The position numbers and the translations under genes were made by a program. Positions 425 through 58,530 of a stretch of 64,000 bases of DNA are shown piece by piece. The first letter of the stretch is position 1, and every line of letters starts with the position of its first letter. A model generated the notes under the pieces. That model did not search any database. It saw only the letters and a list, made by a program, of their open reading frames with translations, and was not told where the DNA came from. The DNA comes from Eledone cirrhosa (Eukaryota), in the NCBI GenBank assembly GCA_964016885.1, contig OZ024743.1:68696001-68760000 (forward strand), written 5' to 3'.

Positions 425-2810
425 AGTCGACCCTATCAATTGCTTTAGATTGATCCAAGTTGATCCAGGGCCCACCCATGCAAGGTTCCTTAACCACCCT
501 CTCTATGATGTATCGCATGAGATGGAGGTTGTCGTGGATGGATCTGTCCGGGATGGCGCATGTCTACGCCTCTCCCACCAGATCACCGACGACAAGCGCC
601 AATCTCTTTGCTAACACCTTGGCCAAAATCTTAAACTCTGCGTTTAGCAGAGTTATGGGCCTGAAGTTGTCTATAACGTCGCCCTTGTTTGGTTCTTTTC
701 TCAGCGGCGTCACCGCTCCCCGGCTCACAAAACTAGGAATGTTCCCGTTCTGCTGCCAGTTGCCGTAGACATCTTCCAAGAGGTCGGCGAACAAGTCTGG
801 CATATACGCATAAAGCTCGTAGGGCAGACCATCCAAACCTGGCGATTTACCCCTAGTGCAGTCAGACATCGCTTTCTGTATTTCACCTGCTGTTATCGGC
901 TTTTCGCAGCACTGCGGTCGTCGAGAGCCGCGGCAGTCCGTCGAGGTATGCACCGAGGTGCATACTCCGATCCTACTCGTCGCCGCTCCCGAACAAATGA
1001 GCAAAGTGCTGTTGAAAAGCCGCACACATCTGCTCGGGTTCGAGCATCATACGCCCGTTTTGATCAGGCAAAGAGCGAATTGTGGACATGTTGTCACGTC
1101 GCGCCTCCACCACCCGGGCCCATTGAACGGCTTTCGTCCCCTCGAGTCTTAGAGCACGCGCTCTAGCTCTGACAACGCAGCCTTCACGCTTTGCGTTGAA
1201 GAATTGGTCGAGTGCCAATCTCGCCGTAAGCACGTCGGTTGCGATGCCTGTCCTAAACGCCTCTTCTAGCTTTCTAACTAACTCTCCCTCTACTCTATTT
1301 TCCTCTACCACTACTCCTTTGCTAAACCTTATCGATTCTACTCTAATAGCCATTTTCAGGGTAAACCACCCCTGTTGTTGACGATAGCACCCGTCAACGC
1401 ACGCTTAACTAATTCGCTGCTCCGGTCTCTGTAAACTTTGCGCGCCGGTTCAGCTTCCAGTAGCCGGTCCCTTGCCTATGGATTCTATCTAAGTCAACTT
1501 CACATATCACAAATTTGTGGTCCGTGTAGTCGACTACTTGAAATTGTGGACAACCTACACTAGCCTTATATGTTTCCCTACAGAATACCCTATCTAAATA
1601 CGATCTGGATGACCCGATGCGGTTTGCCCATGTTCATATTGGCACATTCGGAGAATCCAGTCTATATCTGCCAGACAGTTCAAAACATCTGAGCAGGTTG
1701 TTGAGGCTTTTACACCCTCCTGCCCTGTGTACTAGCCCCTTATAATCCCAGCGTGTATCTAAGATACCGTTCCAGTCGTCCAACTAACACTAAAGAACGG
1801 GACGTTCCTAGAAAGGTCTCTAGACGTCAGTTGGGGTGTAGACGGCTACTAGCCTGGAAGCATTTCCTTCGCTGCCGGTGACATCCAGCACCACCGACAT
1901 ACCTTCTGGTTCCATGAAGATGGCCCGTATGGCGATATCCAAGCGTGTCCAAAAAAGCACGGCAACCCCTACCTCCGATCCTGGGCGGCTGGGAGATGCG
2001 TATACATCGTAGCCGCCGAAGATCGGTGCGAAGACTCGTGCTTCGGAGATTCTGGTCTCGCTGACGGCCACCACATCTATGTTTAGTGACCTGAGGTCGT
2101 TGAGCAGTTGACCTTGCTTCCAAGGTGTCCCCAGGCCACGTACATTTATACTGCCTATTCTAAGTACGGCCATGTTGGATGAGAAACGGTGTAAGTGAGA
2201 AAGGATCACTTACCTCGATCGTATGGTGAAGAGGATGTCGGAGAATATCCTCTTGGTAATCGACCCTCTGAATTCTCCAATTGCGTTGGGGAATTTTTGC
2301 TTTCAAGGTTTGTAATGTTCTATTGAGATTTCAATGATACTTATGTTTGTCGGGAGAGTTATTGGTGTTGGTGGGGGTGTAGTAGTTTTTTTGGGGATGT
2401 CTGTGTGCTGCTTTATGTGTTGTAGGAGTTCTTTATTTGTTATGTTTATGGCTGTGTACTTTCTGTGGGGAGGGGCGATGCTGCTGCTGTCTTGTTGTTA
2501 CTGTTGGTTGTGTGTGTTTTGCTGTGTTTGTGATGTTGATGTTTTTGGTGATGCTGGTGGTGGTGTGGTTGTTGTTGGTGGTGGTTCTTGTAGTGGTGAT
2601 AGTGATGGTGGTGGTGTTGATGCAAGTCTCCTTGTAACCTTACCCCTCTTTGTCTGCCTTCGCTTTAGGAGGGTGAAGCTAAGGGTTTTTTTATTTTTTT
2701 ATTTTTTTGTGGCAGACCTTTTGCCACTTCCCTCCCGTCTCACACTCCGTGTCGGACTCCGCGGCGTCCGGGATGGGTATGAGCTCCACTGCTGTTGGTG
2801 GTGGTAGTAC
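425..2810 (-). mobile_element. L1/Tx1-clade LINE copy A, degenerate: ORF1 3' part, APE endonuclease and N-terminal RT; 3'-truncated
   Basis: Frameshifted ORF pieces: MAVLRIGSINVRGL..SET (APE start, ATG at 2173), GKSPGLDGLPYE, NFRPITLLNAEFKILAKVLAKRL, INLDQ; Pro/Thr-rich ORF1 remnant at 2220-2800. Confidence 0.9.
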
Positions 2811-2814
2811 TGGG

Positions 2815-5800
2815 GGGATGCACTTCTCTCTCCACCCTCACCTTCCTTTCCAGGTGAAAATTGAAGAAGTTGTTGAGGGATTGGCCAAAGAGAAAAGTAT
2901 CTGTCTTCAGTCCTTTCAATCTGGTTCACCATATAACCTTTTTCGCAACTGCCACCAGACAGAGGAAAATTTCCTGCTCTTCCTGACCTAAGGAAGGCGG
3001 CGGGTCGCTCTTCATTATGGACTCGGCCGATAGCCGGATTCGTTCCACGCGTGACGTGACAGTAGCGGGTAGACATAACTCCACAAGACGGTAATGCACG
3101 GACATTGGACAAGTGCGTGCAGAACGGTTTATCCCCAACCGGCAGTGCCCCCCCCCCCCCGTAGCACTACCAAGAGTGGGATTTTTGGAAATTGTCCATC
3201 GTCCCCGGCTCGAAAGTCCTCCGGTACAGACTGGTCAGTCCGACTTCTTCGAGGCCCAAAGCTTCTCCGAGTGCGTCATCGCACTTGCCCACCACTAATC
3301 CTCTCTAGAACTCGAGAATCGAAGTTCCGCTGATCGCATTTCCCGCTTGAACGGCGACTACACCTATTCACCGTTTAGGCAGAATATCTGGAGATGTCGC
3401 AGCCTCAACGCATGTCTGCGCATCATTAGCCACGGCATGCCCAGCCCTCCGAGTAGAGAGAGTTATGGCAGCAGATGGACCACCTTACCAACGGAACTTG
3501 TCCCCTCCACAATAATTCGAAGAGGAACCGTCCAACTTGACGAGGCGCGGACGGGGGCAAGGCACGACGGTCAGGCGGTAGTAGATGACGGACGGGATGT
3601 ACGCATTCGCCACCTCAACGCGACCTTTCTGTGATAGCTTCCTCACAGACCATTTTTGGGTGAGACTGACTACTCAGATCGTTACCTCGTCCCAATTATT
3701 TTCCACCTGGAGGTCTGGTCCGAACCAAACCCCGAGCAACTTTACCGGTCCGTCTGTCCAGCGCCCCACGACGCTGTTGGACGGCATAGGCTTGTCTCTC
3801 CAGGTTCCCAGCTACAAGCCCACCGACTTTTCCGGGTTAGGCTTGGCTCCTGTCAACGTTTCATATTCCTTCAATAAGGTGCCAACAACCTCGATTTCTG
3901 AGGTGTCCGACACGATAACGGTGATGTCCGCACAAGCCGATACCGCCTTTACACGTCCCGGTCCAAGCGGGATGCCCTGCAACAACTCCAGTTTCCGCAG
4001 TAAAAGCTCGAGAGTCAATACGTACAGAAGGGAAGAGAGAGGGCACCATTGACGGACCGTTCGGGAGAGCCGAGATGGTTCCAAGAGGTGGCCATTAACC
4101 TTGACCACCGACCGTGTGCCGCTGTGCATTGCAGCAATCCAGCTTCTGAAGACAGGGACGAAGCCAGCTGCTTTGAGGACAAATTCCAGATACCGATGGT
4201 CGACCCTATCGAATGCTTTCGATTGATCTAAATTGATCAGTGCCCCACCGAAGCGAGGTTTACACACTACCCTCTATATGTTGTATCGCTTGAGGTGGAG
4301 ATTGTCGTGTATGGATCTGGCTGGGATTGCGCAAGTTTACACCTCCCCAACCAAATCCTCGACGACAAGCGCAAATCTCTTTGCTAACACCTTGGCCAAA
4401 ATCTTAAGCTCTGTGTTGAGAAGAGTTATGGGCCTGAAATTGTCTAATGTATCCCTCTTGCTCTCGTCTTTCCTTATCAGCGTCACCACTCCGCTGCCCA
4501 CATAACTGAGAATACTCCACTTCTGCTGCCATTTGCAGTAGAGTGCTTCGAGGATATCTAGTATAAGTCTAGCATATTTACGTAAAGCTCGTAGGGCAGG
4601 CCATCCAAACTGATGACTTGCGCTTCATGCAGCCGACAAGGGCGTCCTGAATTTCGGCTGAAGTAAGCGGCCTTTCGCAGCGCTCAGCGTTGTCCGTCGA
4701 GATGCGCGGCAAGCCGTCAAGGTAGGACCTGAAATCTACTAATCTCTCTGACTCGCCGCACTCCCCGAACAACCGAGAAAAGTGCTGGCGAAAGGTCTCA
4801 CACACCGCTTGGAATTGTTTATCTCGTGTCCGTCTCGGTCCGCCAAAGACCGAATGGTAGTTTTATTACCACGCTGCGTCTCCGCCACGCGGGCCCATCG
4901 AACAGCTTTGGTTCCCTCGTTTCTCAGCGCACGCGCCTTAACTCTGACAATGCAACCTTCGTGTTTCGCAATGAAGAAATGTTCTAATGCCATTCTCGCC
5001 GCTAGCACGTCAGTTGCAATGCCACTACAAATAGCCTCGTCTAACTTATCCGCCAGCTCATCCTTTCTATTTTTCTCTAACGCTAGTTCTTTGCTAAACT
5101 CTATCGAAGTTACTCTAATCTCTCTTTGAGAGCTCCCACCATCTGTTGTTGATGATCCCCCTGTCAACTTTTGCTTAACTAAATTGTTGACTCGGTCCCT
5201 GTAAACATTACGTGCCGGAAATGACATGTTCAGCTTCCAGTAACCCGGTCCCAACCTACGCGTTTTATCTAAGTCGATCATACAGATCACAAATGTGTGA
5301 TCTGAATAGGCGACCCTTTTTAAAAGTGGGCAGCCTATTTCTATCTATTTTCCTAATGAAGATCCTGTCTATATAAGATCTAGATGACCCCATTCGGTTG
5401 GTCCATGTCCATACTGGCACATTAGGGACATCTAGTCGATACCTGTCAGACAGTTGGAACTGGCTGAGTAGGTGCTTGAGGCTTTTGCACCCCCCGCTCC
5501 TAGCAGCTACTCCCACACAATCCCAGCGTGTGTCTAAGATGCCATTCCAGTCCTCCGCTAACAGTAAAGGGCGAGACGTACCCAGAAAGATCTCCAGGCG
5601 CCTAAAGAAATCCGGTCATCCGGCCCCTGTAGGGGCGTAGACGGCCAGCAGTCTAAAGGCACCACCTTCGCTACTGCTTAGATCCAAGACCACCAACTTA
5701 CCGTCCGGATAACGGAAGATCGACCTTACCTCGAGATTCAGTCCTTTCCTAAACAGCCCTGCCGCCCCACCTCCCATTCCCGGCTTGTTAACAGATGCGA

Positions 5801-6465
5801 AGATCTGATAGTCGTCGAAAATGGGGGCTAGTGCGCGCGTGTTGGAAATTCTGGTCTCGCTGTCGGCAATCACATCCATTTCCAGCGACCTGAGGTCGTT
5901 GAGCAGGAAACCCTGCTTCCAGGGTGATCCCAGGCCGCGAACATTTAAACATCCTACTCTTAATATGGCCATGTTGGCAAGCTAAAAGAGTGAGGAAAGG
6001 TTTACTTACATCCCGGGGTCTTGTGAAGGTCGGGTTGTTCGACCTCCATGGTTGGTGGATTTTCTTTTGGGAACCTCTTTAAAAGTCTCGATGTGGGATC
6101 ACATTCGGGGTTCCCACGTCTTGAGGAAAGCTTTCCCGAATTTCTTTGAAGGAATCGCGTGACATTCGGACCAGAAGCAAATCTTCTGGCACGCAAAATG
6201 TGCTCATTTCAAAAATCTCCCCCTTTGTTTGAATGTCCTCGCTTCGTGCTAAGAGGGCCATCATTTTATCGTTGACCCTTCTGACAAGCACGAAATTTTT
6301 AACATTTTGTTGGTGTGGTTTTATTTGTTTTCGTTTTGGTGACTGTGGTGCTGATGGTTTTGGTGGTGTTGTTTCGGGTATGTTTGTGTTTGTTGTAGGT
6401 GTGGTGTATCCAATTTCAGGTATTTGTGTGTTTATTTCTACTTGTGTTTGTTTAGGTTATTTGCG
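2815..6465 (-). mobile_element. L1/Tx1-clade LINE copy B, degenerate: ORF1 3' end plus ORF2 (APE-RT-zinc finger)
   Basis: MAILRVGCLNVRGL (ATG 5972), SRSYIDRIF, GPGYWKLN, LINLDQSKAFDRVDH, VRQWCPLS; many frameshifts; 3' UTR missing. Confidence 0.9.
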
Positions 6466-6467
6466 TT

Positions 6468-6522
<55 letters not shown>

Positions 6523-6765
6523 CTTTCTTTATTAACCACAAGGGTTTACATAAAGTAGACATTAAGGACAGTACAGGACAATACAGGACGGTACAAATGG
6601 GCATTTTTGCGTGTAAAAAAAACAGAGGTTGAAATAAAATAACAAAGAAAAATTCCCCAATAAAGGGGAGACTTCCGAGGGACATTTGTGGAGAAAGCCC
6701 ATTAAAAGACCACAGTGGCCCTGACCACCAGGGCAAGTGCCCTCTCCCAGTTTTCCAGCTTTAAT

Positions 6766-9700
6766 TTACAGACACATACTCAGAGAAGGCCCATTGATTC
6801 GGGCCATACTTGCTTCTCTCACCCATCTTTCAACAAGATGCTGGGAAGAGAGCACTTCCCTCTCTACCCTGATTTTCCTTTTCAAATGAAATTTGAAAAA
6901 GTTAATCAGGGCATCACCGAAGAGGTAAGTGCTCGTCTTCAGCCCTTTCAAACGTGTACACCATACTATCTCTTTCGCCATGGCCACCAGGCAGATAAAA
7001 ACTTCCTGCCCTTCCCGGCTAAAGGAAGGGGGCGGGGCAATCCTCACGATGGACTCAGCTGATAGTTGGATCCCTCCTACACGTGACAGCAGGTGTTCGA
7101 CATAAACCCACAAGTCAGCAATGCTCGGACACTGGACGAGTGCGTGCAGGACGGTTTCGTCGCCCTGCGCACATCTCGGACATGCCCGGCTGACGGCACC
7201 TCCATGCCTGTAGAGTTTATCCCGAACTGGCAAAGCTCCTCGGTAGCACTGCCAGGCCAGGGATTTCTGGAAGTTGTCCATAGGCCCCGGCCCGAAAGTC
7301 CTTCCGAAGAGATTGGCTAGTTGATTTTCGTCGACGCCTAGAGTTTCTCCAAGTACGTCGTCGCTCTTCCCCTCCACTAATCCCCTATAGAACGCCAAGG
7401 TGGACTTTCCACCGATCACATTGCCCGATTGGTCGAGGGCTGTGAGCGCCTGAAGACATTCCAGTCTCCAAGCGCTCCCTCTCGGTCTTCGCTTGACCCA
7501 GGACTGCCGCTCCGTCAAGGAGACGAGCTGGGGAAAAACGTGTCTAGCAAACGGCGACCACACCTGATCACCGTCGAGGAAGAGGTGGAGATATCGTAGC
7601 CTGAGCGCGTGTCTGCGCATCATCAGCCACGGCATGCCCAGCCCTCCACGTAGCGGGTGTTGACAGCAGATGGACCGCCTGACCATCGGAGCGCGTCCCT
7701 TCCACAAAAAGCGAAAGAGCAAACGCTTCAGCGCAGTCAGGCGGGGCTTAGGACAAGGTACGACGGTCAGGTGGTAGTAGATGACGGATGCGATGTACGC
7801 AATCGCCACCTCCGCTCGACCTTTCAGGGATAGCTTCCTCTCGGCCCATTTCTGGGTGAGAGAAGCCACCCTGCTCGTCACCTCGTCCCAGTTTTTGTCC
7901 GTCTGGAGGTCTGGACCGAACCAGACCCCTAGCAATTTAACCGCTCCGTCCGTCCAGCGCCCGACAACGCTGTTGGACGGCATGGACCTGCCTCTCCAGG
8001 TGCCGAGCTGCAGGCCCACTGACTTTTCCTGGTTGATCATTGCTCCTGTCACCGCTTCGTATTCTCTTAGTGTAGTGCCGATCGCCTCGATGTGTTTGGC
8101 GTTCGACACCACTACGGTGACATCGTCGGCATATGCTGACACGGATCTTCCGCATCCTAGTTCGCGCGGGACCCCGCTCAACGTCTCCAGTTTGTGCAGT
8201 AATGGCTCGAGAGTCAATACGTACAATAGGGACGAGAGTGGACATCCTTGGCGGACAGAGCGCATGATGTTGAACGGTTCCGAAAGGTGACAGTTCACTC
8301 TCACTACAGAGCAGGTGTCGCTGTGCATGGCAGCGATCCAGCCTCTGAAGACGGGCCCAAAGCCAGCCGCCCTCAGGACTGCCGCTAGGTAACGATGGTC
8401 GACCCTATCGATGGCTTTCGACTGATCTAAATTGATCAAAGACCCACCCGTGCCAGGTTCCCTAGCTACCCTCTCTACGATGTATCGCATGAGGTGGAGG
8501 TTGTCGTGGATCGATCTGTCGGGAATGGCGCATGTCTGTGCCTCTCCGACCAGACCACCAACGACAAGCGCCAACCTCTTTGCTAGCACCTTGGCCAACA
8601 TCTTGAACTCTGTGTTTAGCAGAGTTATGGGCCTAAAATTATCTATGTTATCCCCCTTGTTCGGATCCTTTCTCAGCAGCGCCACCGCTCCTCGGCTCGC
8701 AGAGCTGGGTATTCTCCCGTTCTGTTGCCAGTTGCAGTAGACGTCCGCCAAGAGGCCTCCGAACAAGTTTGGCATTTGTACGTAAAGTTCATAGGGCAGA
8801 CCATCCAAACCAGGCGATTTACCCCTTGTGCAACTAGTCATTGCATCCCGTACTTCAGCGGTTGTTATCGGCTTTTCGCAACACTCCGCCTCAGTGGCCG
8901 AAAGCCGCGGCAGTCCGTCGAGGTAGACACTAAAGTCCATCCCTCGATCCGGCCCGCCACTGCCCCCGAACAGTTGAGCGAAGTGTCGCTGAAAAGCTTC
9001 ACACATTTGCCCGGGATCGAGTAGCATGCGCCCGTCGTGGTCCACCAAAGACGGATCGTAGCTTTGTTGCCACGACGCGCCTCCGCCACTCGGGCCCATT
9101 GAACGGCTTTCGTCCCCTCGTGTCTGAGAGCACGCACCCTAGCTCTGACAACGCAGCCTTCGTGCTTTGCATTGAAGAATTGGTCAAGGGCCAATTTCGC
9201 CGCAAGTACGTCGGTCGCGATGCCTTTGCTAAGCGCCTCATCTTCTATCAATTTTCTAACTAATTCTCTCTCTGCACTATTTTTCTCTATTGCTAAAGTC
9301 TTACTAAACCTAATGGACTCTATTCTAATTGCTCTTTTCAGAGCAAACCACCACTTGTTGTTGACGATGGCCCCCGTCAACGCCCGCTTAACTAGTTCGC
9401 TAATCCGGTCTCTGTAGGCCTTGCGCGCTGGTAAGGACGCGTTTAGCTTCCAGTAGCCGGGTCCTCGTCTATGAAGACTATCTAAGTCAAGCACACAGAT
9501 CACGAATTTGTGGTCCGTGTAGCTGACTATCTTGAATTGTGGACAGCCTATGCTAGACCTATCTATTTCCCTACAAAATACTCTATCTAGATATGATCTG
9601 GATGACGCTATGCGATTTGTCCAAGTCCACATTGGTACATTCGGGAAATCCATTCGGTACCTGTCAGACAGTTCAAAACGTTTGAGCAGGTTGGTGAGAC

Positions 9701-10189
9701 TCTTGCACCCTCCTTCCCTATCCACTAATCCCACACAATCCCAGCGTGCATCTAAGATCCCGTTCCAGTCGCCCACTAACACTAAAGAGCGGGCCGTTCC
9801 AAGAAAGGTCTCCAGACGCCGGAAGAAATCAGGCCGCCCTGCTCCTGTCGGGGCATAGACGGCCACTAACCTGAAAGCTTGCCCGTCTCCGCTGGTCACG
9901 TCCAGCACCACCAACTTACCTTCTGGGTCCAGGAAGATAGCCCGTATGGCAAGATCCAAACCTCTCCGAAAAAGCACAGCAACTCTCTCCCCGATCCCGG
10001 ACGGCTGGGAGATGCATACACATCGTAGCCACCGAAGATCGGTGCGAAAGCCCGTGCTTCGAAGATTCTGGTCTCGCTGATGGCCACTACATCTATGTTT
10101 AGTGACCTGAGGTCGTTGAGCAGGTGGCCCTGCTTCCATGACGACCCCAAGCCACGCGCATTTATGCTGCCTATTCTGAGTGAGGTCAT
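6766..10189 (-). pseudogene. LINE ORF2 (APE endonuclease, reverse transcriptase, C-terminal CCHC zinc finger) split by frameshifts near 9990 and 9055
   Basis: MTSLRIGSINARGL..ISET; GDWN; SYLDR; YTDH; GYWKLN; VRQGCPLS; AYADDV; CPRCAQGDETVLHALVQC. Confidence 0.93.
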
Positions 10190-10506
10190 GTTGAAAAGGA
10201 GTGGAAAAGATGGGAAAGACCACTTACCTTACTTCTCGTAGGGGAAGGACAGTTTTTCCATCCTTTTCACTGCTTGTGGCCTCCTCAGGAAGGATGTCCT
10301 TATAAATCCCCCTGGAGAGTGCTTGTCGGAAGTCTCCGATGTCCTTGGGGAATTTTTTTTTTAGTGTCATGTACGTTTTCTGTGTGATGCGAGTGATTTG
10401 TATGTGTGGAGGTGGTGTGAATGTTGGGGTTGTTGTGTAGTCTTTTTCTGTGATGCTGGTGTTGTGTTGGATGTAGTGTAATTATTGCTTGTTGTTCAAA
10501 TTTAAT

Positions 10507-13649: not shown

Positions 13650-16600
13650 AAAAGAAAACCCCGTGACCAAGAAATACCGGGATGGCGGCCGGCGGGGAAT
13701 AGCCATGTCTCTAGGGGAGAACGACCCCTCTAGTCTTGGTTGACACTCGTTCTAGAAGTGGTAACACGGAAAGATTACCCCTTGGCGGATAAGGATAAAA
13801 CGCGACAAAATAAAGTAGATGTCTAATGATGAAATCTCATACCGGATCGGCCGTCACCCGGGTAAAAAAGGGCCGCGTTCCTCAGAGAGGAACCTGACTG
13901 GGGTCGAAAAATCAGCTAATGGTTCAAACCTTCCCATCACTTCGGAGCTGGAGACCTCCCATAACCGGAATACTCCTACTGTTGGCCCTCCATGCTCACC
14001 ACCAAGAAATCCAAAGAAAAAGAGAGAAAAATGGTCAAGGGAAGATAATAAAGAAGTCCTTGAGGCTTTCTACACTGCCATGTACTACCCATCAAATACA
14101 TCGAATACAGAGCAAACATATATCAACTGGAAAAAGAAACATCCCGAAAACAGAGGCTATATTGACAGTAACAAACTAGCCAATATACGAAGAAATATTG
14201 TAAGAAAAAAGTTACTAACTGATATAGAAATTGATCAGATCAAGCTAGTAGCACAAAGTCAGCGAAGGGAAAATGAAGCATGTGTCAGTGAAAACGAGGT
14301 AAACTGTAACACTTCGAATCCCAGAGTTGGGGCGGAATCACTGGCAACAGAACAAATTAAAGAAAGGAGCGAAAAAGTGGAGGGAGTGCATGCTCAGGAT
14401 GAAACTCCAAATGAAAATAATGAGATCGTAAATGATAAAGAAATGAATGAGAATGAACTTGCCAACTTGAAGGATTAAATTATGATCGAATGGATGAAAA
14501 TGAAAGAATCTGACATGGGGGAACGAGACACCCTCCCTAAGATCCAGAACTCCAAACAGAACCAAAAGATAATACACAAGACTAACATAATTCTCAAAAA
14601 CATTATCATCACAAACAAAATAAACATTACTGACTTAAATCATCTCTATTATGCATCGGCTAAAGTCACCACTCACTTATGTGGAGTGAAGATGAAAAAA
14701 CAAAGGAATTCCCACAAGAAATCTACATGGCAAGATAACATCAATCGCCAAATAAACCTTCTCCGATCTGACATAGAAATTTTAACAAACTATAAAGTAG
14801 GTGAACATGTTAAACAAACTAAACTTAGAAAATTGAAAAAAAAGTACAGTATAAGATCAACATGTGACATAGACATGCTGATAGAAACAATCAAGCAAAA
14901 AGTGTCGGCCAAAGCTGCTCGTATAAGGCGCTTTGAAAAACGATCTAGATTCTATAAGGACAATAATATGTTCAAAAACAACCAAAGAAACTTCTACAGA
15001 AAAATTGGTAAGTCAACAATAACTGCTAAATCAATACCACCCAAGGAGGAAGTGCAAGAATTCTGGGAAAAGATCTGGGCCGAAGAAAAAGTTCATAACA
15101 TACATGCCCCATGGATAGACAGACAAATGAAAGAAACAGCTCACCTTGAAGAACAAACATGGGAAAATATAACAGTTGAACAGCTGCGCTTGGCTCTAAG
15201 AAAAACCAGCAAATGGAAATCCCCAGGAAAAGACAAAATACAAAACTTTTGGATAAATGCCTTCACAGAGTCTCATGAGCTGTTAGCCCAACTTTACAAT
15301 GAAATAGTTAAGGAGCCAGAAAAGATACCATCATGGCTAGTTAACGGCATTACATTCCTGCTACCGAAGAATGATGAGACAAACAATCCCAAAAATTACA
15401 GACCGATAACCTGCTTGACCACAATGTATAAAATTTTAACATCAGTCCTAACTGAATACACATATGACCACCTGATAACAAATGACCTATTTCCCATTGA
15501 GCAGAAAGGGTGTAAACGAGGCTCATATGGCTGTAAGGATCAGCTTCTGGTTAACAAAATGATACTGGAAGATTGTCATAATAGACACAAAAACCTATCG
15601 ATTGCTTGGATAGATTATAAAAAAGCATTTGATAGTTTGCCACACAGTTGGATTGAAAAATGTTTAGAGATTTTCAAAATATCCCCCGTTGTCAGGAGGT
15701 TTTTGTCATTCAGTATGAGGACATGGAGAACGACACTCCTTTTGAATAGTGAAACAAAATCACTGGAAGCTGGAGAAGTTAACATTAATTGTGGAATTTT
15801 TCAGGGTGACTCTTTATCACCGCTTTTATTCTGCATCGCACTTATACCATTAAGTAAAATGCTCAATGAAACAAAACATGGATATAGAGTCTATGACAAA
15901 ACCATTAATCACCTGTTCTACATGGATGACCTGAAACTATTTGCAAAAAATGATGAACAATTGCAAGCGCTATTATCCACTGTGAAGCAGTTCAATGATG
16001 ACATTAAAATGGAGTTTGGACTGGATAAATGCGCCAAAGCAACGTTCACCAGAGGAAAGCTGCTGAAGAGTTCAGACATTAATCTTGATCGGGGGAATGT
16101 GATAAGAGAGCTTGATCAAGAACAAACTTACAAATATCTAGGTGTTTGTGAAGGAGACGGAATCAAGCACTCGACAATGAGGGAAAGGATAAGGAAGGAA
16201 TGTTACCGCAGAGTCAGAGCAATCTTAAGAACGGAATTGAATGCAAGGAATAGGATCGATGCCATAAACACGCTTGCCATACCAGTAGTAACCTACAGTT
16301 ACAATGTCATCAACTGGTCAAGCACAGAGATCCGTAGGCTCGATACAAAAATCCGAAAATTCTTAATCATGCACAGAATGCATCACCCTAAGGCAGACAT
16401 AGATAGAATATATCTCCCTAGGAAAGAAGGAGGACGTGGGTTAATCCAGTTAGACATTGCGTTGAAAACTGCAACAATTGGATTATCCACATATCTAAGG
16501 GAATCACATGATTGGATGATCAAACTCGTTTTGAAACACGAAAGCACCAAAAGATCATATTCCATTACAAAAGATGCACAAAGATACAGTAATGGACTAC

Positions 16601-17626
16601 AAATTTCAGAAGTCCCATTTACTGCTGAAATGGAAAACACAGAAAAAGCAAAGCAGGTAAAAGTAACTGCAAAGAAAGAACTGCTACAGAAACTGGCTAA
16701 GAAATGGCAAGAAAAGCCTCTGTATGGAAAATACCCAGAGCGAGCTAACAATCCTGATGTTGACAAAACTTTAACCCATCAGTGGTTGGCATCCTCTGGA
16801 CTGAAATCGGTGACTGAAGGACTGATTATATCCGCACAAGATCAGTGTCTGCCAACAAAAAATTACCAAGCCAACATAATAAAAAATGGGTGCAGCCCAT
16901 TATGCCGTGTATGCAAAAAACAACCAGAGACCATTGACCATATAATTTCAATGTGCAGTCCTATAGCTCCAACCGAATACCTAAACAGGCATGACAGAGC
17001 TGCACAATACATACATTGGATAATGTGTAAGCATTTTGACCTGCCCCATCAAAAGAATTGGTGGGAGCATCAACCACCTCCCATACTTGAAAAAGATCAC
17101 ATCTCAATCTTGTGGAACTTTAGCATCCAAACAGACCGAAAAATAGATGCAAATAGACCTGATATAATATTGAAGGACTTTCAAAGGAGGGTATGCCTGC
17201 TAATTGATATGTCTGTTCCAATAGACAAGAATGTATCTATAAAAACATTTGAAAAATTAAGCAAGTATAAGGACCTGGAGATAGAAATTGGAAAAATGTG
17301 GAAATTGAGAACTAAAACAATACCAGTGGTTGTAGGCGCTCTGGGAATGATACCTAAGGGGTCTAACGACTACTTATCGCAAATCCCAGGAAACCCGCGT
17401 ATAGGAGAAATACAAAAGATAATACTAATGGGAACTGCCCATATACTAAGGAAGATCCTGTCAATATAAGTACATCCCAAGTCTAAACACTAAGGATGCA
17501 TGTGTGAATATGTATGTTCTTTCTTGAACATGGCGGACCTTGTTGTCTCTTGAGGTCACTGGTTGTGACTTGGTGATAACTCGTATAAACATAAAGCAAG
17601 ATAAATGCAAATAATAATAATAATAA
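13650..17626 (+). mobile_element. R4/Dong-clade non-LTR retrotransposon (RT + CCHC + restriction-like endonuclease), near full length, ending in (TAA)n
   Basis: One long reading frame, ~140-bp 3' UTR, ATAATAATAATAAT at 17611-17624; 5' boundary approximate. Confidence 0.88.
13819..17469 (+). CDS. RT-RLE polyprotein (~1215 codons) interrupted by one in-frame TAA at 14476-14478
   Basis: WKSPGKDKI, NYRPITCL, WIDYKKAFDSLPH, GIFQGDSLSP, LFYMDDLK, CRVCKKQPETIDHIISMC, RHD, NRPDII..IDMSVP..KLSKY; ORFs 13819-14478 and 14482-17469 are in the same frame. Confidence 0.92.
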
Positions 17627-19336: not shown

Positions 19337-19570
19337 GGCGCATGGCTTAGTGGTTAGCACATTGGGCTTGCAATCGAAAGGTTGTGAGTTCAGTTCTCGG
19401 ACCGGGTGATGTGTTGTTTCTTTGAGCAAGACACTTTATTTCACGTTGCTCCAGTTTACTTAGTTGTAGAAATGAGATGATAGGTCACTATCATTAAATT
19501 ACCCAAGGCACCTCCAACGAGATATATCTTGGAGGAGGCCAGCTAAACCTGCACTGGTGTGAGCTGTCAC
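19337..19570 (+). mobile_element. tRNA-derived CORE-type SINE
   Basis: A-box TGGCTTAGTGG, B-box GAGTTCAGTTCT, core TTGAGCAAGACACTTTATTTCACGTTGCTCCAG; close paralogue at 52991-53230. Confidence 0.85.
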
Positions 19571-19649
19571 ACACATATATACAAAATAATATGGTTCTCA
19601 AACGATATATGATCCCCCCCCCCCTCTCTCTCTCTCTATATATATATAT

Positions 19650-20098
19650 ATAAGTATGTTTTGAAACAGTGAGCGAGTTTGAAATTAGAAAATATATAGC
19701 TTTCACCGTATTTTTGACTAAAGGAATTTTTAGCTTGATAACGGGGTTTCGAACCCTCAGATAAATGGAAAAAGATGAGTATTGACGTACATGGGAGTCG
19801 AACCCACATCTGTGGTTATCGCGACCACTGTGCTACCATTACACCAACACATCACCCATCTCTTTCCATTCAAATTAGAAACTACTTTCTTAGCGAGTAG
19901 TTTCTAATTTGAATGGAAAGAGATGAGTGATGTGTTGGTGTAATGGTAGCACAGTGGTCGCGATAACCACAGATGTGGGTTCGACTCCCATGTACGTCAA
20001 TACTCATCTTTTTCCATTTATCTGAGGGTTCGAAACCCCGTTATCAAGCTAAAAATTCCTTTAGTCAAAAATACGGTGAAAGCTATATATTTTCTAAT
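19650..20098. repeat. Near-perfect palindrome (~200-bp arms, axis ~19891) with a 35-bp unpaired tail, inserted in (TA)n
   Basis: 19684-19886 is the reverse complement of 19896-20098 (one mismatch seen). Confidence 0.95.
19929..19999 (+). tRNA. tRNA-like cloverleaf (pseudo-tRNA or SINE head; CGA in anticodon position, non-canonical loop); mirror copy 19783-19853 on minus strand
   Basis: GATGTGT/GTACGTC acceptor, GTGT-AATGGTA-GCAC D arm, GTGGT-CGCGATA-ACCAC anticodon arm, GTGGG-TTCGACT-CCCAT T arm; G33 and T37 are non-canonical. Confidence 0.7.
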
Positions 20099-20111
20099 AT
20101 ATATATATATA

Positions 20112-20828
20112 TAATAGTGAAAGATTGAATAATAACATGGTCGGCTGTACAACAAGGGGTTTTATTTCAAGTATTAACAATTGTTTCATTGATCAGGTGA
20201 GTCTAAAGGTCGCTAATCACTCGAAGTTGCGTTACTGGACCTTAAATACAGTGTGTACCTCTGATCAAATCATCGGAATACTAGAGAGTTTTACATATAG
20301 CATTTGTATATATAGATACAACGTAGAATCAAAACAATAACATCAATAATAAAAGATAATGATAAAGAGGTCCTTAGCCCTACCCCTTATGTCTCATCCT
20401 CGTATCTCTCACTTAATTTTTCATTTATTATTTTTTATGTTTTATCTGTCATTTGTTACTACTTTTTATTCTCTACTTCTAACCCTCTGATATTTGACCA
20501 CCCCGTATGTATGTATCTAATGTTGCTTTTCATATTAGTATTATCTCCACACTTACATATTTATACAAACACTTACTCACTACCACCACTATTAAAGTGG
20601 AGTAACGCAACTTCGAGTGATTCCCCTTGTTGTACAGCCGACCATGTTATTATTCAATCTTTCACTATTATTACGCCAAGTACAACCTGTATAGGAATTC
20701 TTGCGAACTCGCTACCTAACTATGGAAACATCTTTTTTAGTCAAACAAAGCCGTACGTTAAAATATCCACAATACAGAGTACTCACAACCTCTAACCTGA
20801 TTACCTATAACGATAACTTGTTATCCCA
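20112..20828. repeat. Inverted-repeat insert in (TA)n: arms 20112-20248 and 20590-20670, tail to ~20828
   Basis: TAATAGTGAAAGATTGAATAATAACATGGTCGGCTGTACAACAAGGGG and its reverse complement; the right arm lacks 20160-20214. Confidence 0.85.
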
Positions 20829-41200: not shown

Positions 41201-41358
41201 TATTTTTTTCACCTTAGCGATTCTGCTCCATTACGATTTGAACACATATATGTATATGTATGCGTGCGTTTTTCTTTTTTGGTCAGTTATAACATACGGC
41301 TCGGAAAAACCTATATATATACATTAGGGTAGTAGAGTGGGTAATAGGAACCAGTATA

Positions 41359-41454
41359 ACCCCGACGGCAGAGCTAAAGCCGTTTCGACGGCTAGTTCTA
41401 GACTAAATAAGAATGTTTAGCTTGGTAAATAAATAGCCGAGCTTCTCAGGGGGT
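41359..41454 (-). ncRNA. Hammerhead-like motif in pLTR (family A; core CUGA-GA); mirror copy 44512-44596 (+)
   Basis: ACCCC-CTGAGAA-G..CGGCTA..TAGCCGTC-GAAA-CGGC..GCCG-TC-GGGGT. Confidence 0.62.
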
Positions 41455-42383
41455 AATTCCTTATATGGGAAGATAGTAATTGTCAAAAGGATTGGTAACA
41501 AATTTGTTGTAAAGACAGATGATTATATCATGGCATTTGGTGGGCGGTGGGGGTAGTTGAACTTGCATGTAGAACAAAGAGGGAGTGGAGGAAATCCAGT
41601 CAAGTGTTGAAAATGAAATCTATACAGCAGATTCTAAGGATAGTGTATGGAGGGTCGAAAAAAGTGTACTGGAGAATGGGAAGAGGGGGGGTTGAAAGAA
41701 TAGGTAAATCGAAAGGGAGTAAACAAAAAAAAAAACATATAAAAATAAGGAAATAAATATATAAAAATCTATTTCTGTTTACTACTCCATCTCCACAATC
41801 ACCAAATCTCTCATTGGTATTGTTAAGCTATAGAAAAGTTTAATAGGTGGAGAAAAATACTAAATACGAGATTGTAATGAAAGAATGTTATAAAGCCGGT
41901 TTACAGGGTTCTAACACCACTGCTATAGTTAGTTAGTAATCAGCCAATGCTATCTTATAATGACAGGTTTATAAGTTGAGAACAAAAATACAACTACAAA
42001 AATACTAATACGAAATATTAATTCAGAATACTAATACAGAAATACTAATACAAGAATACTAATACAAAAATACCACTAAGAAATTTAGAAATCACAGAAA
42101 TGGAGCAGCAACCAGAAAGAAAACAATTTACTGGGGTCTAACACATCTGCTATAAAAAGCGTAATCTGCCAATTCTATCTTAAAATTGGGGGGGGGGGGG
42201 GGGTTACTGAGGCTACAGAGGACCGATGGGCTGCATCGGGTGGGCGAAAAGTTGAAAAAAAAATACGACAAGGAAGGAGATCTGGGGTGGAAGCACTAGG
42301 AAGAGATTGGGGAAGAAATAAATATAGAGGAAATTTATAAAAAAAATATATAAAAAAGTTACGTCTACCTTTGTGAGCAGGTG

Positions 42384-43561
42384 TTACCCCTTACAAAATC
42401 GGCCAGTGTGGTGTTTCAGCCCTTGTCTACCCCCCTCCACCGGGTCATTACGAGGTTTGAGAGCGAGGTAAGACCTACGCAATCTGTGTTTGCATGCAGT
42501 TACCAGTTCGTATTTCTTGTTTAGGAGTTGGTACTTCGAAAACAGGATTTGTAATGTTTCCTCCGAGCATAAATTACACGGACGGCGTCCTCCCGTGTAA
42601 GAGTTAGCTCTGGAAAGTAAGCTCCAAGTGAGATTGTAGGTTATATTATTATCTTTGAGGTCCCATACGTGGCCCGAAAGTGTAGTGGCATGACACCGGG
42701 CCGGGTTTCGGAAAGTATGTCGGTGTAGGTAGAGCCGTCTCTTGAAGTCACAAGCGGTTAATCCTACATAAGCTTTGTTAGAGGTGTCCGTCATCACGAT
42801 GCACTGGTAGATGTTGTAGTGGGAAGTGTTTTTCGATGAGCCTAAAAAGATTTTCCCAATAGGTGTTGTCACCTCGGCATTGTGGGGAGGATTGAACCAC
42901 GTTACGTTGCATGAGCGGCGGTGTCGCCTGCTGGTGCGCTAATGGAAGCTGGATAATAGGATATTTCCTCCCGGAAGCCACTCCGCTTGAGAGCCTGATT
43001 GTAATAAGGCGCATGTTCGTCGAATATCTGCTCATTAGCGGACAAACGAGATATGCGGAGGGAGATGTTTTTAACCAGGTTATTGGTGATGTTTCTAGGA
43101 TGGTACGACCGGCGGTGGATGTAATGCAGGTTGTCGTTTGGTTTCCTGTATGGGTAGTACAGATCATTATCGAGGTTAAGTGTAACGTCCAGGGAAGTTT
43201 ACTCGGGTTTGGGACGTGTGTAGTGTTATTTTAAATCCCCAGTCGCGGAAGAAGCTGATTAATTGTTTACGGACCCGGTCTGTACTACTGGGGTTGTGCC
43301 CTTTGAGGGTAGGAGCCCATCATCGCGGTACAATCCACTGCCGAATGCAGGAAACATTTCGGTGAGTTTAAATATTAGGAATAATCCTATAAGATCTGTG
43401 ACCTCAGCCGAATCTGTCGCGCCGATACTGACGTCAAAGGGGGAGTCAGGAGCTCTCTTTATCCATTTGGAGTTGTCGAAAGCTAGGACTGCTCTCCTGG
43501 CGTGGAGGTTGATGTTTCTTTCCTGGTCGGTGATGGGCGTGAGTGTTTCGGCAAAGTCCAA
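42384..43561 (-). pseudogene. PLE reverse transcriptase C-half plus GIY-YIG endonuclease, frameshifted
   Basis: ORFs 43259-43561, 42778-43167 and 42384-42872 carry the motifs listed above. Confidence 0.88.
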
Positions 43562-44606
43562 GGGGTAACCCTGCTTACAAAGGTAGACGTAACTTTTTTA
43601 TCTTTTCCTCTATATTTCCTTCTTTCCCCCCCCCCATCTCTTCCTAGTCCTTCCACCCCAGATCTCCTTCTTTGTCTTTTTTTCAGGTTTTCGCCTACCC
43701 CGATTCAGCCCATCGGTCCTCTGTAGCCTCAGTACCCCCATCCCCCTAATTTTAAAATAGAATTGGCCGATTACGCTTTTTATAGCAGATGTGTTAGACC
43801 CCAGTAAATTGTTTTCTTCCTGGTTGCTGCTCCATTTCTGTGATTTCTAAATTTCTTAGTGGTATTTTTGTATTAGTATTCTTGTATTAGTATTTCTTTA
43901 TTATTATTCTGAATTAATATTTCGTATTAGTATTTTTGTAGTAGTATATTTGTTCTCAACTTATTAACCTGTCATTGTAAGATAGCATTGGCTGATTACT
44001 AACTAACTATAGTAGTGGTGTTAGACCCCCTGTAAAGCCGGCTTTATAAAATTCTTTCACAACAATCTCGTATTTAGTATTTTTCTCCACCTATTAATCT
44101 TTTCTATAGCTTAGCAATACCAATGAGAGATTTGGTGATTGTGGGAATGGAGTAGTAAACAGAAATTGTTTTTTTAATATTTATTTCCTTATTTTTTGTT
44201 TTGTATATATTTATTTCCTTATTTTTATAATGTTTTTTTTCTTTACTCCCTTTCAATTTACCTATTCTTTCAACCCCCCCCTCATCCCATTCTCTAGTAC
44301 ACTTTTTTCGACTTTCTATACATTATCCTTAGAATCTGCTGTATAGATTTCATTTTCAACACTTGACTGGGTTTCCCCCACTCCCTCTCTGTTCTACATG
44401 CAAGTTCAGCTACCCCTACCTCCCACCAAATGCCATGATAGAATCATCTGTCTTTACAACAAAATTTTGACCAATCCTTTTGACAATTACTATCTTTCCA
44501 TATAAGGAATTACCCCTTGAGAAGTTCGGCTATTTTTATACCAGGCTAAAAATTCTTATTTAGCCGTCGAAACGGCTTGAGCTCTGCCGTCGGGGTCATA
44601 CTTGTT

Positions 44607-44662
<56 letters not shown>

Positions 44663-54903: not shown

Positions 54904-54909
<6 letters not shown>

Positions 54910-57900
54910 ATAATAATAGTAATAATAATAATAATGCTTTCTTTATTAACCACAAGGGTTTACATAAAGTAGACATTAAGGACAGTACATGACAATACAG
55001 GACGGTACAAATGGGCATTTCTGCGTGTAAAAAAAACAAACCAGGATGTAACAAAAAATAACAATGAAAAATTCCCCAATACAGGGGAAAATTCCGAGGG
55101 ACATTTGTAGAAAAAGCCCATTAAAAGGCCACAGTGACCCTGACCACCAGCACAAGTGCACTCTCCAAGTTTTCCACCTTTAATTTACAGACACATACTC
55201 AGAGTAGGCCCATTCACTCGGACCATTCTTGCCTCTCTCACCCATCTTTCAACAAAATGCTGGGAAGAGAGCACTTTCCTCTCTAACCTGATTTTCCTTT
55301 TCAAATGAAATTTGAAAAAGTTAATCAGTGCATCACCGAACGGGTAAGTGCTCGTCTTCAGCTCTTTCAAACGTATCCACCATACTATCGCTTTCGCCAT
55401 GGCCACCAGACAGATAAAAACTGCCTGCCCTTCCCGGCTAAAGGAGGGGGACCGGGAATCCTCCCGATGGACTCAGCTGATAGCTGGATCCGTCCTACAC
55501 GTGACAGCAGGTGTTCGACATAAACCCAGGCCAGTAATTTCTGGAAGTTGTCCATAGGCCCCAGCCCGAAAGTTCTTCCAAAGAGTTTGGCTAGTTGATT
55601 TTCGTCGACGCCTAGAGTTTCCCCAAGTACGTCGTCGCATTTCCCCTCCACTAATCCTCTATAAAACGCCGAGGGGGAGTTTCCACCGATCACATTGCCC
55701 GATTGGTCGAGGTCAGTGAGCGCCTGAAGACATTCCAATCTCCAAGCGCTCCCTCTCGATCTTCGCTTGACCCAGGACTGCAGCTCCGTCAAGAAGACGA
55801 GCTGGGGAAAGACGCGTCTAGCAAAAGGCGACCACACCTGGTCACCGTCGAGGAAGAGGTGGAGATGTCGTAGTCTGAGTGCGTGTCTGCACATCACCAG
55901 CCACGGCATGCCCAGCCACCCACGTAGCGGGTGTTGACAGCAGATGGACGGCCTGTCCATCGGTGCGCGTCCCTTCCACAAAACCCGAAAGAGCAAACGC
56001 TCCAGTGCAGTCAGGCGAGGCTTAGGACAAGGTACGACGGTCAGGCGGTAGTAGATGACGGACGCGATGTACGCGTTGGCCATCTCCGCTCGACCATTCA
56101 GGGATAGCTTCCCCTCCGCCCATTTCTGGATGAGAGAAGCCACCCTGCTCGTCACCTCGTTCCAGTTTTCGTCCGTCTGGAGGTCCGGACCGAACCAGAA
56201 CCCTAGCAATTTAACCGCTCCGTCCGTCCAGCGCCCGACAACGCTGTTGGACGGCATGGACATGCCTCTCCAGGTGCCGAGCTACAGGCCCACTGACTTT
56301 TCCTGGTTGATCGTTGCTCCTGTCACCGCTTCGTATTCTCTTAGTGTAGTGCCGATCGCCTCGATGTGTTTGGCGTTCGACACCACTACGGTGACATCGT
56401 CCGCATATGCTGACGCGGATCTTCCGCATCCTAGTTCGCGTAGGATCCCCCTCAACGTCTCCAGTTTGTGCAGTAATGGCTCGAGAGCCAATACGTACAA
56501 GAGGGACGAGAGGGGAAATCCTTGGCGGACCGAGCGAATGATGTTGAACGGTTCCGAAAGGTGACCGTTCACTCTCACCACAGAGCAGATATCGCTGTGC
56601 ATGGCAGCGATCCAGCCGCTGAAGATGGGCCCAAAGCCAGCCGCCCTCAGGACAGCCGTTAGGTAACGATGGTCGACCCTATCGAAAGCTTTCGACTGAT
56701 CTAAATTGATCAAGGACCCTCCCGTGCCAGGTTCCCCACGTACCCACTCTACGATGTATCGCATGAGGTGGAGGTTGTCGTGGATCGATCTGTCGGGAAT
56801 GGTGCATGTCTGCGCCTCTCCCACCAGACCACCAACGACAAGCGCCAACCTCTTTGCTAGCACCTTGGCCAAAATCTTGAACTCTGTGTTTAGCAGAGTT
56901 ATGGGCCTGAAATTATCTATGTTATCCCACTTGTTCGGATCCTTTCTCAGCAACGCCACAGCTCCTCGGCTTACAGAGCTGGGAATTCTCCCGTTCTGTT
57001 GCCAGTTGCAGTAGACGTCCGCCAAGATGCCTCCGAACATGTCTGGCATCTGTACGTAAAGTGCATAGGGCAGATGATCCAAACCAGACAGGATCGTGGC
57101 TTTGTTGCCACGACGCGCATCCGCCACTCGGGCCCATTGAACGGCTTTCGTCCCCTCGGGTCTGAGAGCACGCACCCTAGCTCTGACAACACAGCCTTCG
57201 TGGTTTGCATTGAAGAATTGGTCAAGGGCCAATTTCGCCGCAAGTACGCCGGTCGCGATGTCTTTGCTAAGCGCCTCGTCTAATTTTCTAACTAGATCTC
57301 CTTCTGCTCTATCTTTCTCTATTGCTAAAGCCTTACTCAACCTAATGGACTGTATTCTAATCACTCTTTTCAGAGCAAACCACCACTTGTTTTTGACGAT
57401 AGCACCCGTCAACGCTCGCTTAACTAGTTCGTTAATCTGGTCTCTGTAAGGCTTGCGCGCTGGTAAGGACGCGTTTAGCTTCCACTAGCCGGGTCCTCGT
57501 CTATGAAGCCTATCTAAGTCAAGCACACAGATCACGATTTTTTGGTCCGTGTAGCTGATTATCTTGAATTGTGGACAGCCTATGCTTGAACTATCTATTT
57601 CCCTACAAAATACTCTATCTAGATATGATCTGGATGACCCTATTCGGTTTGTCCAAGTCCACATTGGCACATTCGACAAATCCAATCGGTACCTGTTAGA
57701 CAGGTAAAAACGCCTGAGCAGGTTGGTGATGATCTTCCACCCTCCTCCCCTATCCGCTAATCCCACACAGTCCCAGCGTGCATCCAAGATCCCGTTGCAG
57801 TCGCCCACTAACTCTAAAGAGCGGGACGTTCCGAGAAAGGTTTCCAGACGCCGGAAGAAATCAGTCCGCCCTGCTCCTGTCGGGACATAGACGGCCACTA

Positions 57901-58530
57901 GTCTGAAACCTTACCCGTCTCCGCTGGTCACGTCCAGCACCACCAACTTACCTTCTGGGTCCAGGAAGATGGCCCGTATGGCGAGATCCAAACCACTCCG
58001 AAAAAGCATAGCACTCCCCCCCCCCACCCCCCACCGATCCAGGACGGCTGGGAGATGCGTACACAGCGTAGCCGCCGAAGATCGGTGCGAAGGCCTGTGC
58101 TTCGGAGATTCTGGTCTCGCTGATGGCCACTACATCTATGTTTAGTGACCTGAGGTCGTTGAGTAGGTGACCCTGCTTCCATGACGACCCCAACGATGCG
58201 CATTTATGCTGCCTATTCTGAGTGAGGTCATGTTGAAATGGAGTGGAAAATATGGGAAAGACCACTTACCTTATTTCTCGTAGAGGATGGATGGTTTCTC
58301 CATCCCTTTTCACTTTATCGTCTGGTGAAGGGACCGTTGAATCCTCCCTTCGGCTGGTCGTCGGTTCTTCTGTGAGTATATCCGAATGTACTCTCCGGTT
58401 GAGTGTCCCTCCTAGGTCTCTGAAATCACCAACTGCGTAGGGGAAATTTATTTTAATATTTGTGTATTGTTTCTGTGCTATTCTTACGAGTCTTATGTTC
58501 GTTGGTGTTTTGATTGGTGCTGGTATTATA
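54904..58530 (-). mobile_element. L1/Tx1-clade LINE copy D (ORF2 and 3' UTR of the copy C subfamily), 5'-truncated in ORF1, with internal deletions and a (TAA)n tail
   Basis: 3' UTR 54935-55184 nearly identical to 6522-6765; ORF2 ATG at 58231; deletions near 57088 and 55530. Confidence 0.92.

Follow-up and report, generated by a model that had tools for sequence, protein, structure and literature searches.

A ribozyme-free repeat with a tRNA-derived head, probably copied by a Neptune-type Penelope-like element, and its truncation hot spot at T-loop A58

The window analysed here, a 64,000-nucleotide stretch of the Eledone cirrhosa genome, contains a palindromic insert at positions 19651–20098, bounded by two (TA)n runs that represent the target sequence (left flank 19637–19652, right flank 20098–20113). 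The palindrome is formed by arms of 203 nt each, 19684–19886 and 19896–20098, which differ at a single position (19926) and are separated by a 9-nt spacer, much as the first-pass annotation had claimed in describing nearly identical arms of about 200 bp. Against a 259-nt tandem unit read from neighbouring copies, the left arm lies on the reverse strand with its 3′ end outward and spans unit positions 46–259 (19684–19898), and the right arm lies on the forward strand and spans unit positions 58–259 (19896–20098), terminating at the short end, unit 259. The two 5′-truncated arms are joined through a 3-nt microhomology overlap at 19896–19898. The left arm alone is extended by a 33-nt tail of the type found in Penelope-like elements (PLEs), which occupies 19651–19683 on the reverse strand and corresponds to positions 1–33 of the tandem unit that follows; this tail, the inversion and the (TA)n at both ends bear out the PLE-like layout proposed earlier. 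Three changes from the family consensus are common to both arms. Since the arms differ from one another at only one base, compared with a mean arm-versus-arm divergence of 2.4% across the family, we conclude that the window copy is very young.

Each arm carries a tRNA-like cloverleaf, at 19783–19853 on the reverse strand (A58 at 19798) and at 19929–19999 on the forward strand (unit 91–161). In the forward copy, an A-box-like sequence is found at 19936–19947, a non-decoding anticodon loop at 19959–19965, a B box at 19979–19987 and A58 at 19984. The cloverleaf is enclosed by a 19-bp clasp, whose 5′ strand is at 19910–19928 (unit 72–90) and whose 3′ strand, at 20002–20020 (unit 164–182), holds a run of five T residues (T5, 20009–20013) resembling a Pol III terminator. 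Beyond it lies a small GGG/CCC hairpin (20026–20038), also on the forward strand.

A search of the 3.0-Gb genome with the arm sequence gave 1360 first-look candidates, and near-full-length matches among the 40 scored were 94–99% identical. Exact 24-mers were matched 738 times at the 3′ end of subfamily A, and 4071 and 1715 times immediately 3′ and 5′ of the T loop, respectively, these being counts of arms or units rather than of inserts; the check on copy number called for earlier, for which the 4071 matches are the family-wide count, reveals a multicopy repeat. It comprises subfamilies A (259 nt), B (283 nt) and C, together with older forms. Junctions of the same family are present in public contigs of one sample (three runs, none of whose contigs spans the window insert), and the layout therefore does not stem from an error peculiar to this assembly. 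A single-copy assembly fold-back, which the first-pass annotation had named as the finding that would overturn it, is contradicted by the recurrence of the layout in thousands of copies and of the CATG junction in the public contigs. One old insert (G000:C1:131458900–131465830; L273, L274) holds some 25 tandem units and, in keeping with the PLE layout, has both a short inverted arm and a tail. Non-adjacent units of this array share variants, a higher-order sharing that points to later duplication at the DNA level, and the array was dropped as proof of rolling-circle copying. An identical tandem pair at L026 looks like a later duplication as well.

The mode of insertion was defined in 75 loci for which the 3′ end was the sole basis of selection; of these, 51 are two-armed, 22 single-armed and 2 complex. 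The 3′ ends of both arms face outward into (TA)n. In 50 of the 51 two-armed inserts one end falls at about unit 251/259 and the other extends 28–45 nt further, tails in the family stopping mostly at +37 or +44. Three marks of PLE membership are present: a tail of 30–40 nt at one end only (the same 50 inserts), an inverted 5′-truncated arm with partial tandem units, and an AT-rich or (TA)n target. An insertion of LINE type, with a simple tail, a target duplication and a single arm, is not what these loci display; they have the PLE layout instead. A tail with an inverted copy is described for PLEs in the available text of PMC8557442, and two internal start sites for reverse transcription have been demonstrated in vitro, according to the available part of PMC11167929; the inserts agree with both. 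At L037 and L047 the non-tailed arm extends further 5′ than the tailed arm and so is not contained in it, and simple fold-back copying cannot yield such a pair. Moreover, rare variants are common to opposite arms at 0.0019 per site and between loci at 0.00004, an approximately 40-fold ratio that suggests that both arms are usually drawn from one source, the alternative being conversion of one arm by the other. A tRNA SINE of a different kind begins directly after a TA run at 19337–19571 of the window and at L083:1261–1481, in the latter case between the two arms of the element, which raises the question of whether it may also use PLE machinery.

The tRNA-like nature of the head is recognised by ARAGORN, which calls genes at 19782–19854 (reverse) and 19928–20000 (forward), and by Rfam, in which RF00005 scores 44.3 bits (cut-off 29) at 19783–19853 and 19929–19999. 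Comparison with host tRNA-Gln, the one tRNA covered in the analysis of parentage, gives matches in 46 of 74 columns and a D arm that is nearly identical but one base shorter in the head. These three results identify a tRNA-derived head with A and B boxes of the SINE2 kind, and the copy counts, the layout and the head comparison together support the initial proposal of a young, multicopy, PLE-mobilised element with such a head. Host genes of tRNA-Gln type occur in regularly spaced clusters at G000:C1:168.21–168.28 Mb and C6:47.25–47.30 Mb.

The anticodon loop of the window copy does read CGCGATA, as first reported, giving G33 and U37, and it is accompanied by a short variable loop. Under the established rules for tRNAs, these three features are incompatible with a normal tRNA-Ser, and we conclude that the window cloverleaf is not one. 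The attributes of a functional tRNA gene, U33, a purine at 37 and arm lengths fitting the anticodon, are lacking here, a Ser anticodon being combined with the short variable loop. Across subfamilies the loop reads CGCGATA, CTGGATA or CCGGATA. The claim that all four stems pair is correct for subfamily A, which has a 7-bp acceptor, a discriminator A and canonical D and T arms, but does not extend to the family: full pairing at the top of the anticodon stem is confined to A, and a G·A opposition is found there in 106 of 162 full heads. In subfamily B the two top acceptor pairs are broken. The clasp described around the cloverleaf is confirmed, its 19 bp having pair probabilities of 0.8–1.0 in the family unit. 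For the acceptor and D stems of that unit the predicted pairing is weak (0.02–0.38), and the fold of the right arm has a z-score of −4.3.

Between the consensuses of A, B and C the D and T arms differ only by an additional A in the D loop of C, whereas the flanks diverge and the anticodon loop and acceptor top vary. The check for covariation suggested at the outset came out negative, with nearly no two-sided changes in the 162 full heads; subfamily changes are one-sided and compatible at pairs 81, 82 and 96, and breaking at 72, 86, 90–92 and 116. Because constancy is concentrated in the D and T arms and two-sided changes are few, the cloverleaf appears to fit a role as promoter and T loop better than that of a processed tRNA. 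Diverged relatives at L302:1426–1650 and L318:1426–1650, with altered D or anticodon arms and the same T arm, could supply covariation if further ones were gathered.

The sequence that follows the clasp had been read either as a collapsed hammerhead ribozyme or as a second T arm with a B box, and neither reading survives comparison with the family. The family has TAAA where the window copy has GAAA. The G of this GAAAC (20032/19750, unit 194) occurs in 3 of 200 aligned columns, two of which are the window's own arms, and at 19750 the public contigs carry the family base in 100241 of 100280 depth units. A CUGAnGA…GAAA core is absent from the sense strand of the A and B units even with one mismatch allowed, and the same motif scan finds the core in the Neptune family discussed below, which served as positive control. 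Rfam returned only tRNA and below-threshold miRNA hairpin matches, with no ribozyme; this silence carries little weight, since Rfam also missed the Neptune hammerhead. The loop of the supposed second T arm reads TTCTAAA, TTATAAA or TTCTTAA. The hairpin at 20026–20038 is neither a hammerhead nor a conserved B box, and the type I hammerhead that each unit of a retrozyme possesses was not found in these units. The CTGA…GAAA of the window copy and the tandem units do recall a retrozyme whose hammerhead has collapsed, but with GAAA nearly private to this copy and CTGA replaced by CCGA in B and C, we attach almost no credence to that explanation, or to an assembly fold-back.

The identity of the machinery that copies the element is indicated by four independent hybrids, encountered among 322 partly overlapping loci, in which element and PLE sequence are joined with no TA run at the joint. 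In L086 and L246 one arm derives from each family and the two meet head to head; in L138/L139, a single event that has been duplicated, a piece of reverse transcriptase (RT) is fused at the 3′ strand of the acceptor; and L303 involves an 81% relative. These four inserts tie the element to an autonomous PLE. For the partner family 2012 candidates were obtained, with 91–96% identity among 40 scored; it encodes an RT followed by a C-terminal GIY-YIG endonuclease that is preceded by CX4CxxC. Its copies carry a tail and are bounded by (TA)n, and the 3′ UTR contains a hammerhead core. Although the Pfam scores of its domains lie below the curated cut-offs, we call it Neptune-type from its domain order and motif, which correspond to those given in the accessible text of PMC8557442; an assignment to Naiad was dropped, the endonuclease being C-terminal. 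No 3′ sequence common to the element and Neptune was found by blastn with a word size of 7 at loci L165–L182. Other PLE families also abut the element, and Neptune may not be its only partner.

Some further observations relate to these PLEs. A decayed PLE at 41344–44611 of the window has 1-kb inverted arms and endonuclease- and RT-like remnants, and terminal sequence like its own is joined to the 3′ part of the element in L204 and L318. The motif GTGAAAGC occurs near the 3′ ends of the element, of the Neptune family (L165–L182) and of a third TA-inserting repeat (flanks of L184 and L246); it is changed in subfamily C, and may be a recognition site for a protein or a product of chance. Short Neptune copies often start some 65–75 nt upstream of the hammerhead core rather than at the predicted cut site (L008, L009, L017, L051, L086, L108).

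The most striking property of the family is the distribution of its 5′ ends. These were mapped for 187 arms, the two arms of one insert not being independent counts, in three sets: the 75 3′-picked loci, 27 of subfamily B, and 40 picked on unit 152–175, the last of which is biased against starts beyond 152. Of the 180 arms that reach unit 158, 123 stop at 145–158; among the remaining 57, none stops at 136–144, 24 stop at 98–135 and 33 pass. The 3′-picked set taken alone gives 65 of 97 stopping at 145–158. In the window this hot spot corresponds to 19983–19996 on the forward strand, and both window arms read through it. Most junctions lie either at the palindromic CATG (151–154) or, where an arm meets a TA run, at AT (152) or TA (155); of 28 arms of the latter kind, 24 stop at 145–155. 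Fourteen of the 123 stops reach 145–149, and the palindrome TCGA of the T loop (143–146) is never a junction. From these last two facts we infer, allowing for trimming in placing the exact stop base, that the cDNAs end at about 146–147, A58 being unit position 146.

A58 is also a site of excess substitution. It is changed in 46 exact matches (23 to T, 16 to G, 7 to C), compared with 17 and 26 at control A residues (p = 3e-4), and A-to-T changes number 23 at A58 and 9 and 7 at two control residues. The controls lie in the same 25-mer, the CpG-adjacent context of A58 may contribute, and the excess is small, amounting to roughly 25 additional changes in about 2000 read-through units. A58 is unchanged in 112 of 112 aligned pieces of subfamily A, and of 12 loci that have a different T arm, 11 carry an A at this position. 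No subfamily lacking A58 emerged from this exact-pattern search, which would miss one with further changes in the 25-mer, and the 30 A58-changed matches inspected of the 46 are spread over several subfamilies. The enzyme TRMT6/61A methylates GUUCRA loops outside tRNA, and m1A causes truncation and misincorporation, as stated in the available portion of 10.1101/202747. We consider it reasonably likely, from the position of the edge and the substitutions, that host m1A58 blocks the RT and so gives rise to the hot spot. A genomic record of truncation at m1A58 was not found described in the freely accessible papers searched.

The same sharp edge at 145–148 would be produced if the RNA were cut in the T loop by a tRF-3-type host nuclease or an unrecognised ribozyme, the hot spot then marking the 5′ end of a monomer and the tRNA mimic taking the hammerhead's place as the cutting device. 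Conversion of multimers to monomers is indeed the role proposed for the ribozymes of Sm-alpha and retrozymes in the consulted part of PMC6765202. Such cutting leaves the substitution excess at A58 unexplained, however, about one-third of arms pass the site, and the element contains no Rfam ribozyme or hammerhead core; we regard it as unlikely.

Truncation elsewhere in the head bears on transcription and RNA processing. For 191 arms reaching unit 126, the rate is 1.1–1.5% per base over 80–126 and 0.4% over 63–79; this four-fold fall upstream of unit 80 is a weak hint of a transcription start near there. The T5 run (unit 171–175) is conserved in all main subfamilies and, with a T4, lies between the A and B boxes and the RT starts. 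A plain Pol III transcript would for this reason end before the RT starts, and the mobile RNA would need read-through or another polymerase. Transcription of the element by Pol III is nevertheless plausible. One might alternatively suppose that the tRNA part is a passenger in read-through from a flanking promoter, and that RNA structure or an elbow-bound protein creates the hot spot on unmodified RNA; the expected arrest of Pol III at T5, a three- to four-fold increase in truncation across the entire tRNA body and the missing covariation would agree with this. Against it, the D and T arms stay constant across A, B and C, save for the D-loop A in C, as the flanks diverge, the RT gets through the acceptor stem and the far longer clasp before stopping, and the edge coincides with A58. 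We judge the passenger explanation very unlikely.

Marginally less credible still is cleavage of the cloverleaf by RNase P and RNase Z, a possibility raised in the first-pass annotation, by which units or a tRNA-like small RNA, in the manner of mascRNA, would be freed. The acceptor, discriminator and D and T arms of subfamily A would suit these enzymes. An edge at G1, the RNase P site, is nonetheless missing among the 191 arms: none starts at G1 and one starts at position 2, and starts are scattered over 80–98. In the mapping of 5′ ends described above, one or two starts fall at 161–162. The broken acceptor top in B, the near absence of two-sided changes and a clasp that pairs leader with trailer also argue against processing, and the idea is left unsupported.

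Overall, we think it probable that the element, a non-coding repeat that lacks a ribozyme and is headed by a tRNA-derived part, is copied in trans by a Neptune-type PLE, from an RNA that is likely to be methylated at A58. The RNA would arise from tandem or 3′-extended copies, probably through Pol III transcription that is directed by the A/B boxes and continues beyond T5, or through transcription reading in from a neighbouring promoter, and a TRMT6/61A-type host enzyme would methylate its GUUCGA loop. The PLE endonuclease would cut both strands of (TA)n, and reverse transcription would begin from two internal positions, unit 251/259 and +33 to +44, using two templates of common origin. About two-thirds of the cDNAs would halt at base 59; once trimmed to the nearest microhomology, whether the CATG palindrome or an AT of the target, they would be joined. 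Only read-through copies such as that in the window would regain the whole head and could become new sources. A more specific proposition is that of a ‘SINE of Penelope elements’ that is transcribed by Pol III, has a tRNA head and lacks a ribozyme, and whose RNA passes for a tRNA in the host, so that m1A58 blocks the RT and most new copies lose their promoter. We advance it more tentatively, as a possibility somewhat short of an even prospect.

Known systems offer partial parallels, here drawn from the available portions of the reports cited. Sm-alpha and Sj-alpha of Schistosoma (PMC6765202, PMC2770079) resemble the element in having a tRNA-Gln-like, SINE-like unit, dispersed and in tandem, with a presumed Pol III promoter; Sm-alpha has an active hammerhead, which the element lacks, and PLE-type inverted arms and tails are not shown for it in those portions. 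The non-LTR retrozymes of animals (PMC7229834, 10.64898/2026.07.22.740005) are likewise short, non-coding tandem units proposed to be non-autonomous PLE partners, but carry a type I hammerhead and are akin to PLE pLTRs, whereas the element has a tRNA head, no hammerhead and no detected pLTR similarity. Non-autonomous Chlamys PLEs such as MRC1 (PMC8557442) share the lack of a canonical hammerhead, head-to-tail insertions, microsatellite targets and tails. They generally have 3′ sequence in common with an autonomous family, are not described as tRNA-headed in the text available, and belong to systems that differ from the element's partner with its C-terminal endonuclease. SINE2 elements and Helenus TRIMs (PMC10886601) are likewise non-autonomous and contain a part that derives from a tRNA and probably bears a promoter; SINEs depend on LINE machinery and Helenus possesses LTRs, whereas the element has neither A tail nor LTR and inserts with two ends in the PLE manner. 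The element works like a SINE or a retrozyme that parasitises PLE machinery, while lacking the hammerhead of retrozymes and Sm-alpha and the LINE-type insertion of SINEs. A tRNA-headed, ribozyme-free PLE partner was not found described in the literature, and Repbase, Dfam or supplements (e.g. the O. vulgaris library, PMC13282606) may hold the family.

Such an element would carry SINE-like parasitism beyond LINEs and LTR elements to Penelope elements, with no ribozyme involved, and it bears on whether PLE-type mobility needs hammerheads. That priming takes place at two ends and from separate templates is supported in vivo by the hybrids and the two-armed layout. Should blockage at m1A58 be correct, thousands of genomic copies would constitute a fossil record of an RNA modification that occurs in the germline, and an enzyme that modifies tRNA would hold a mobile element in check, acting as a brake on copy number.

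The surroundings of the insert contain other repeats. A second fold-back element adjoins it at 20111–20671, with arms at 20111–20172/20610–20671 and 20215–20245/20592–20622; it has no strict hammerhead core on either strand and is multicopy in the public contigs. Elsewhere in the window, a 996-codon open frame occupies 14479–17469, and several GC-rich paralogous blocks of 70–93% identity lie at 426–10271 and 54904–58314.
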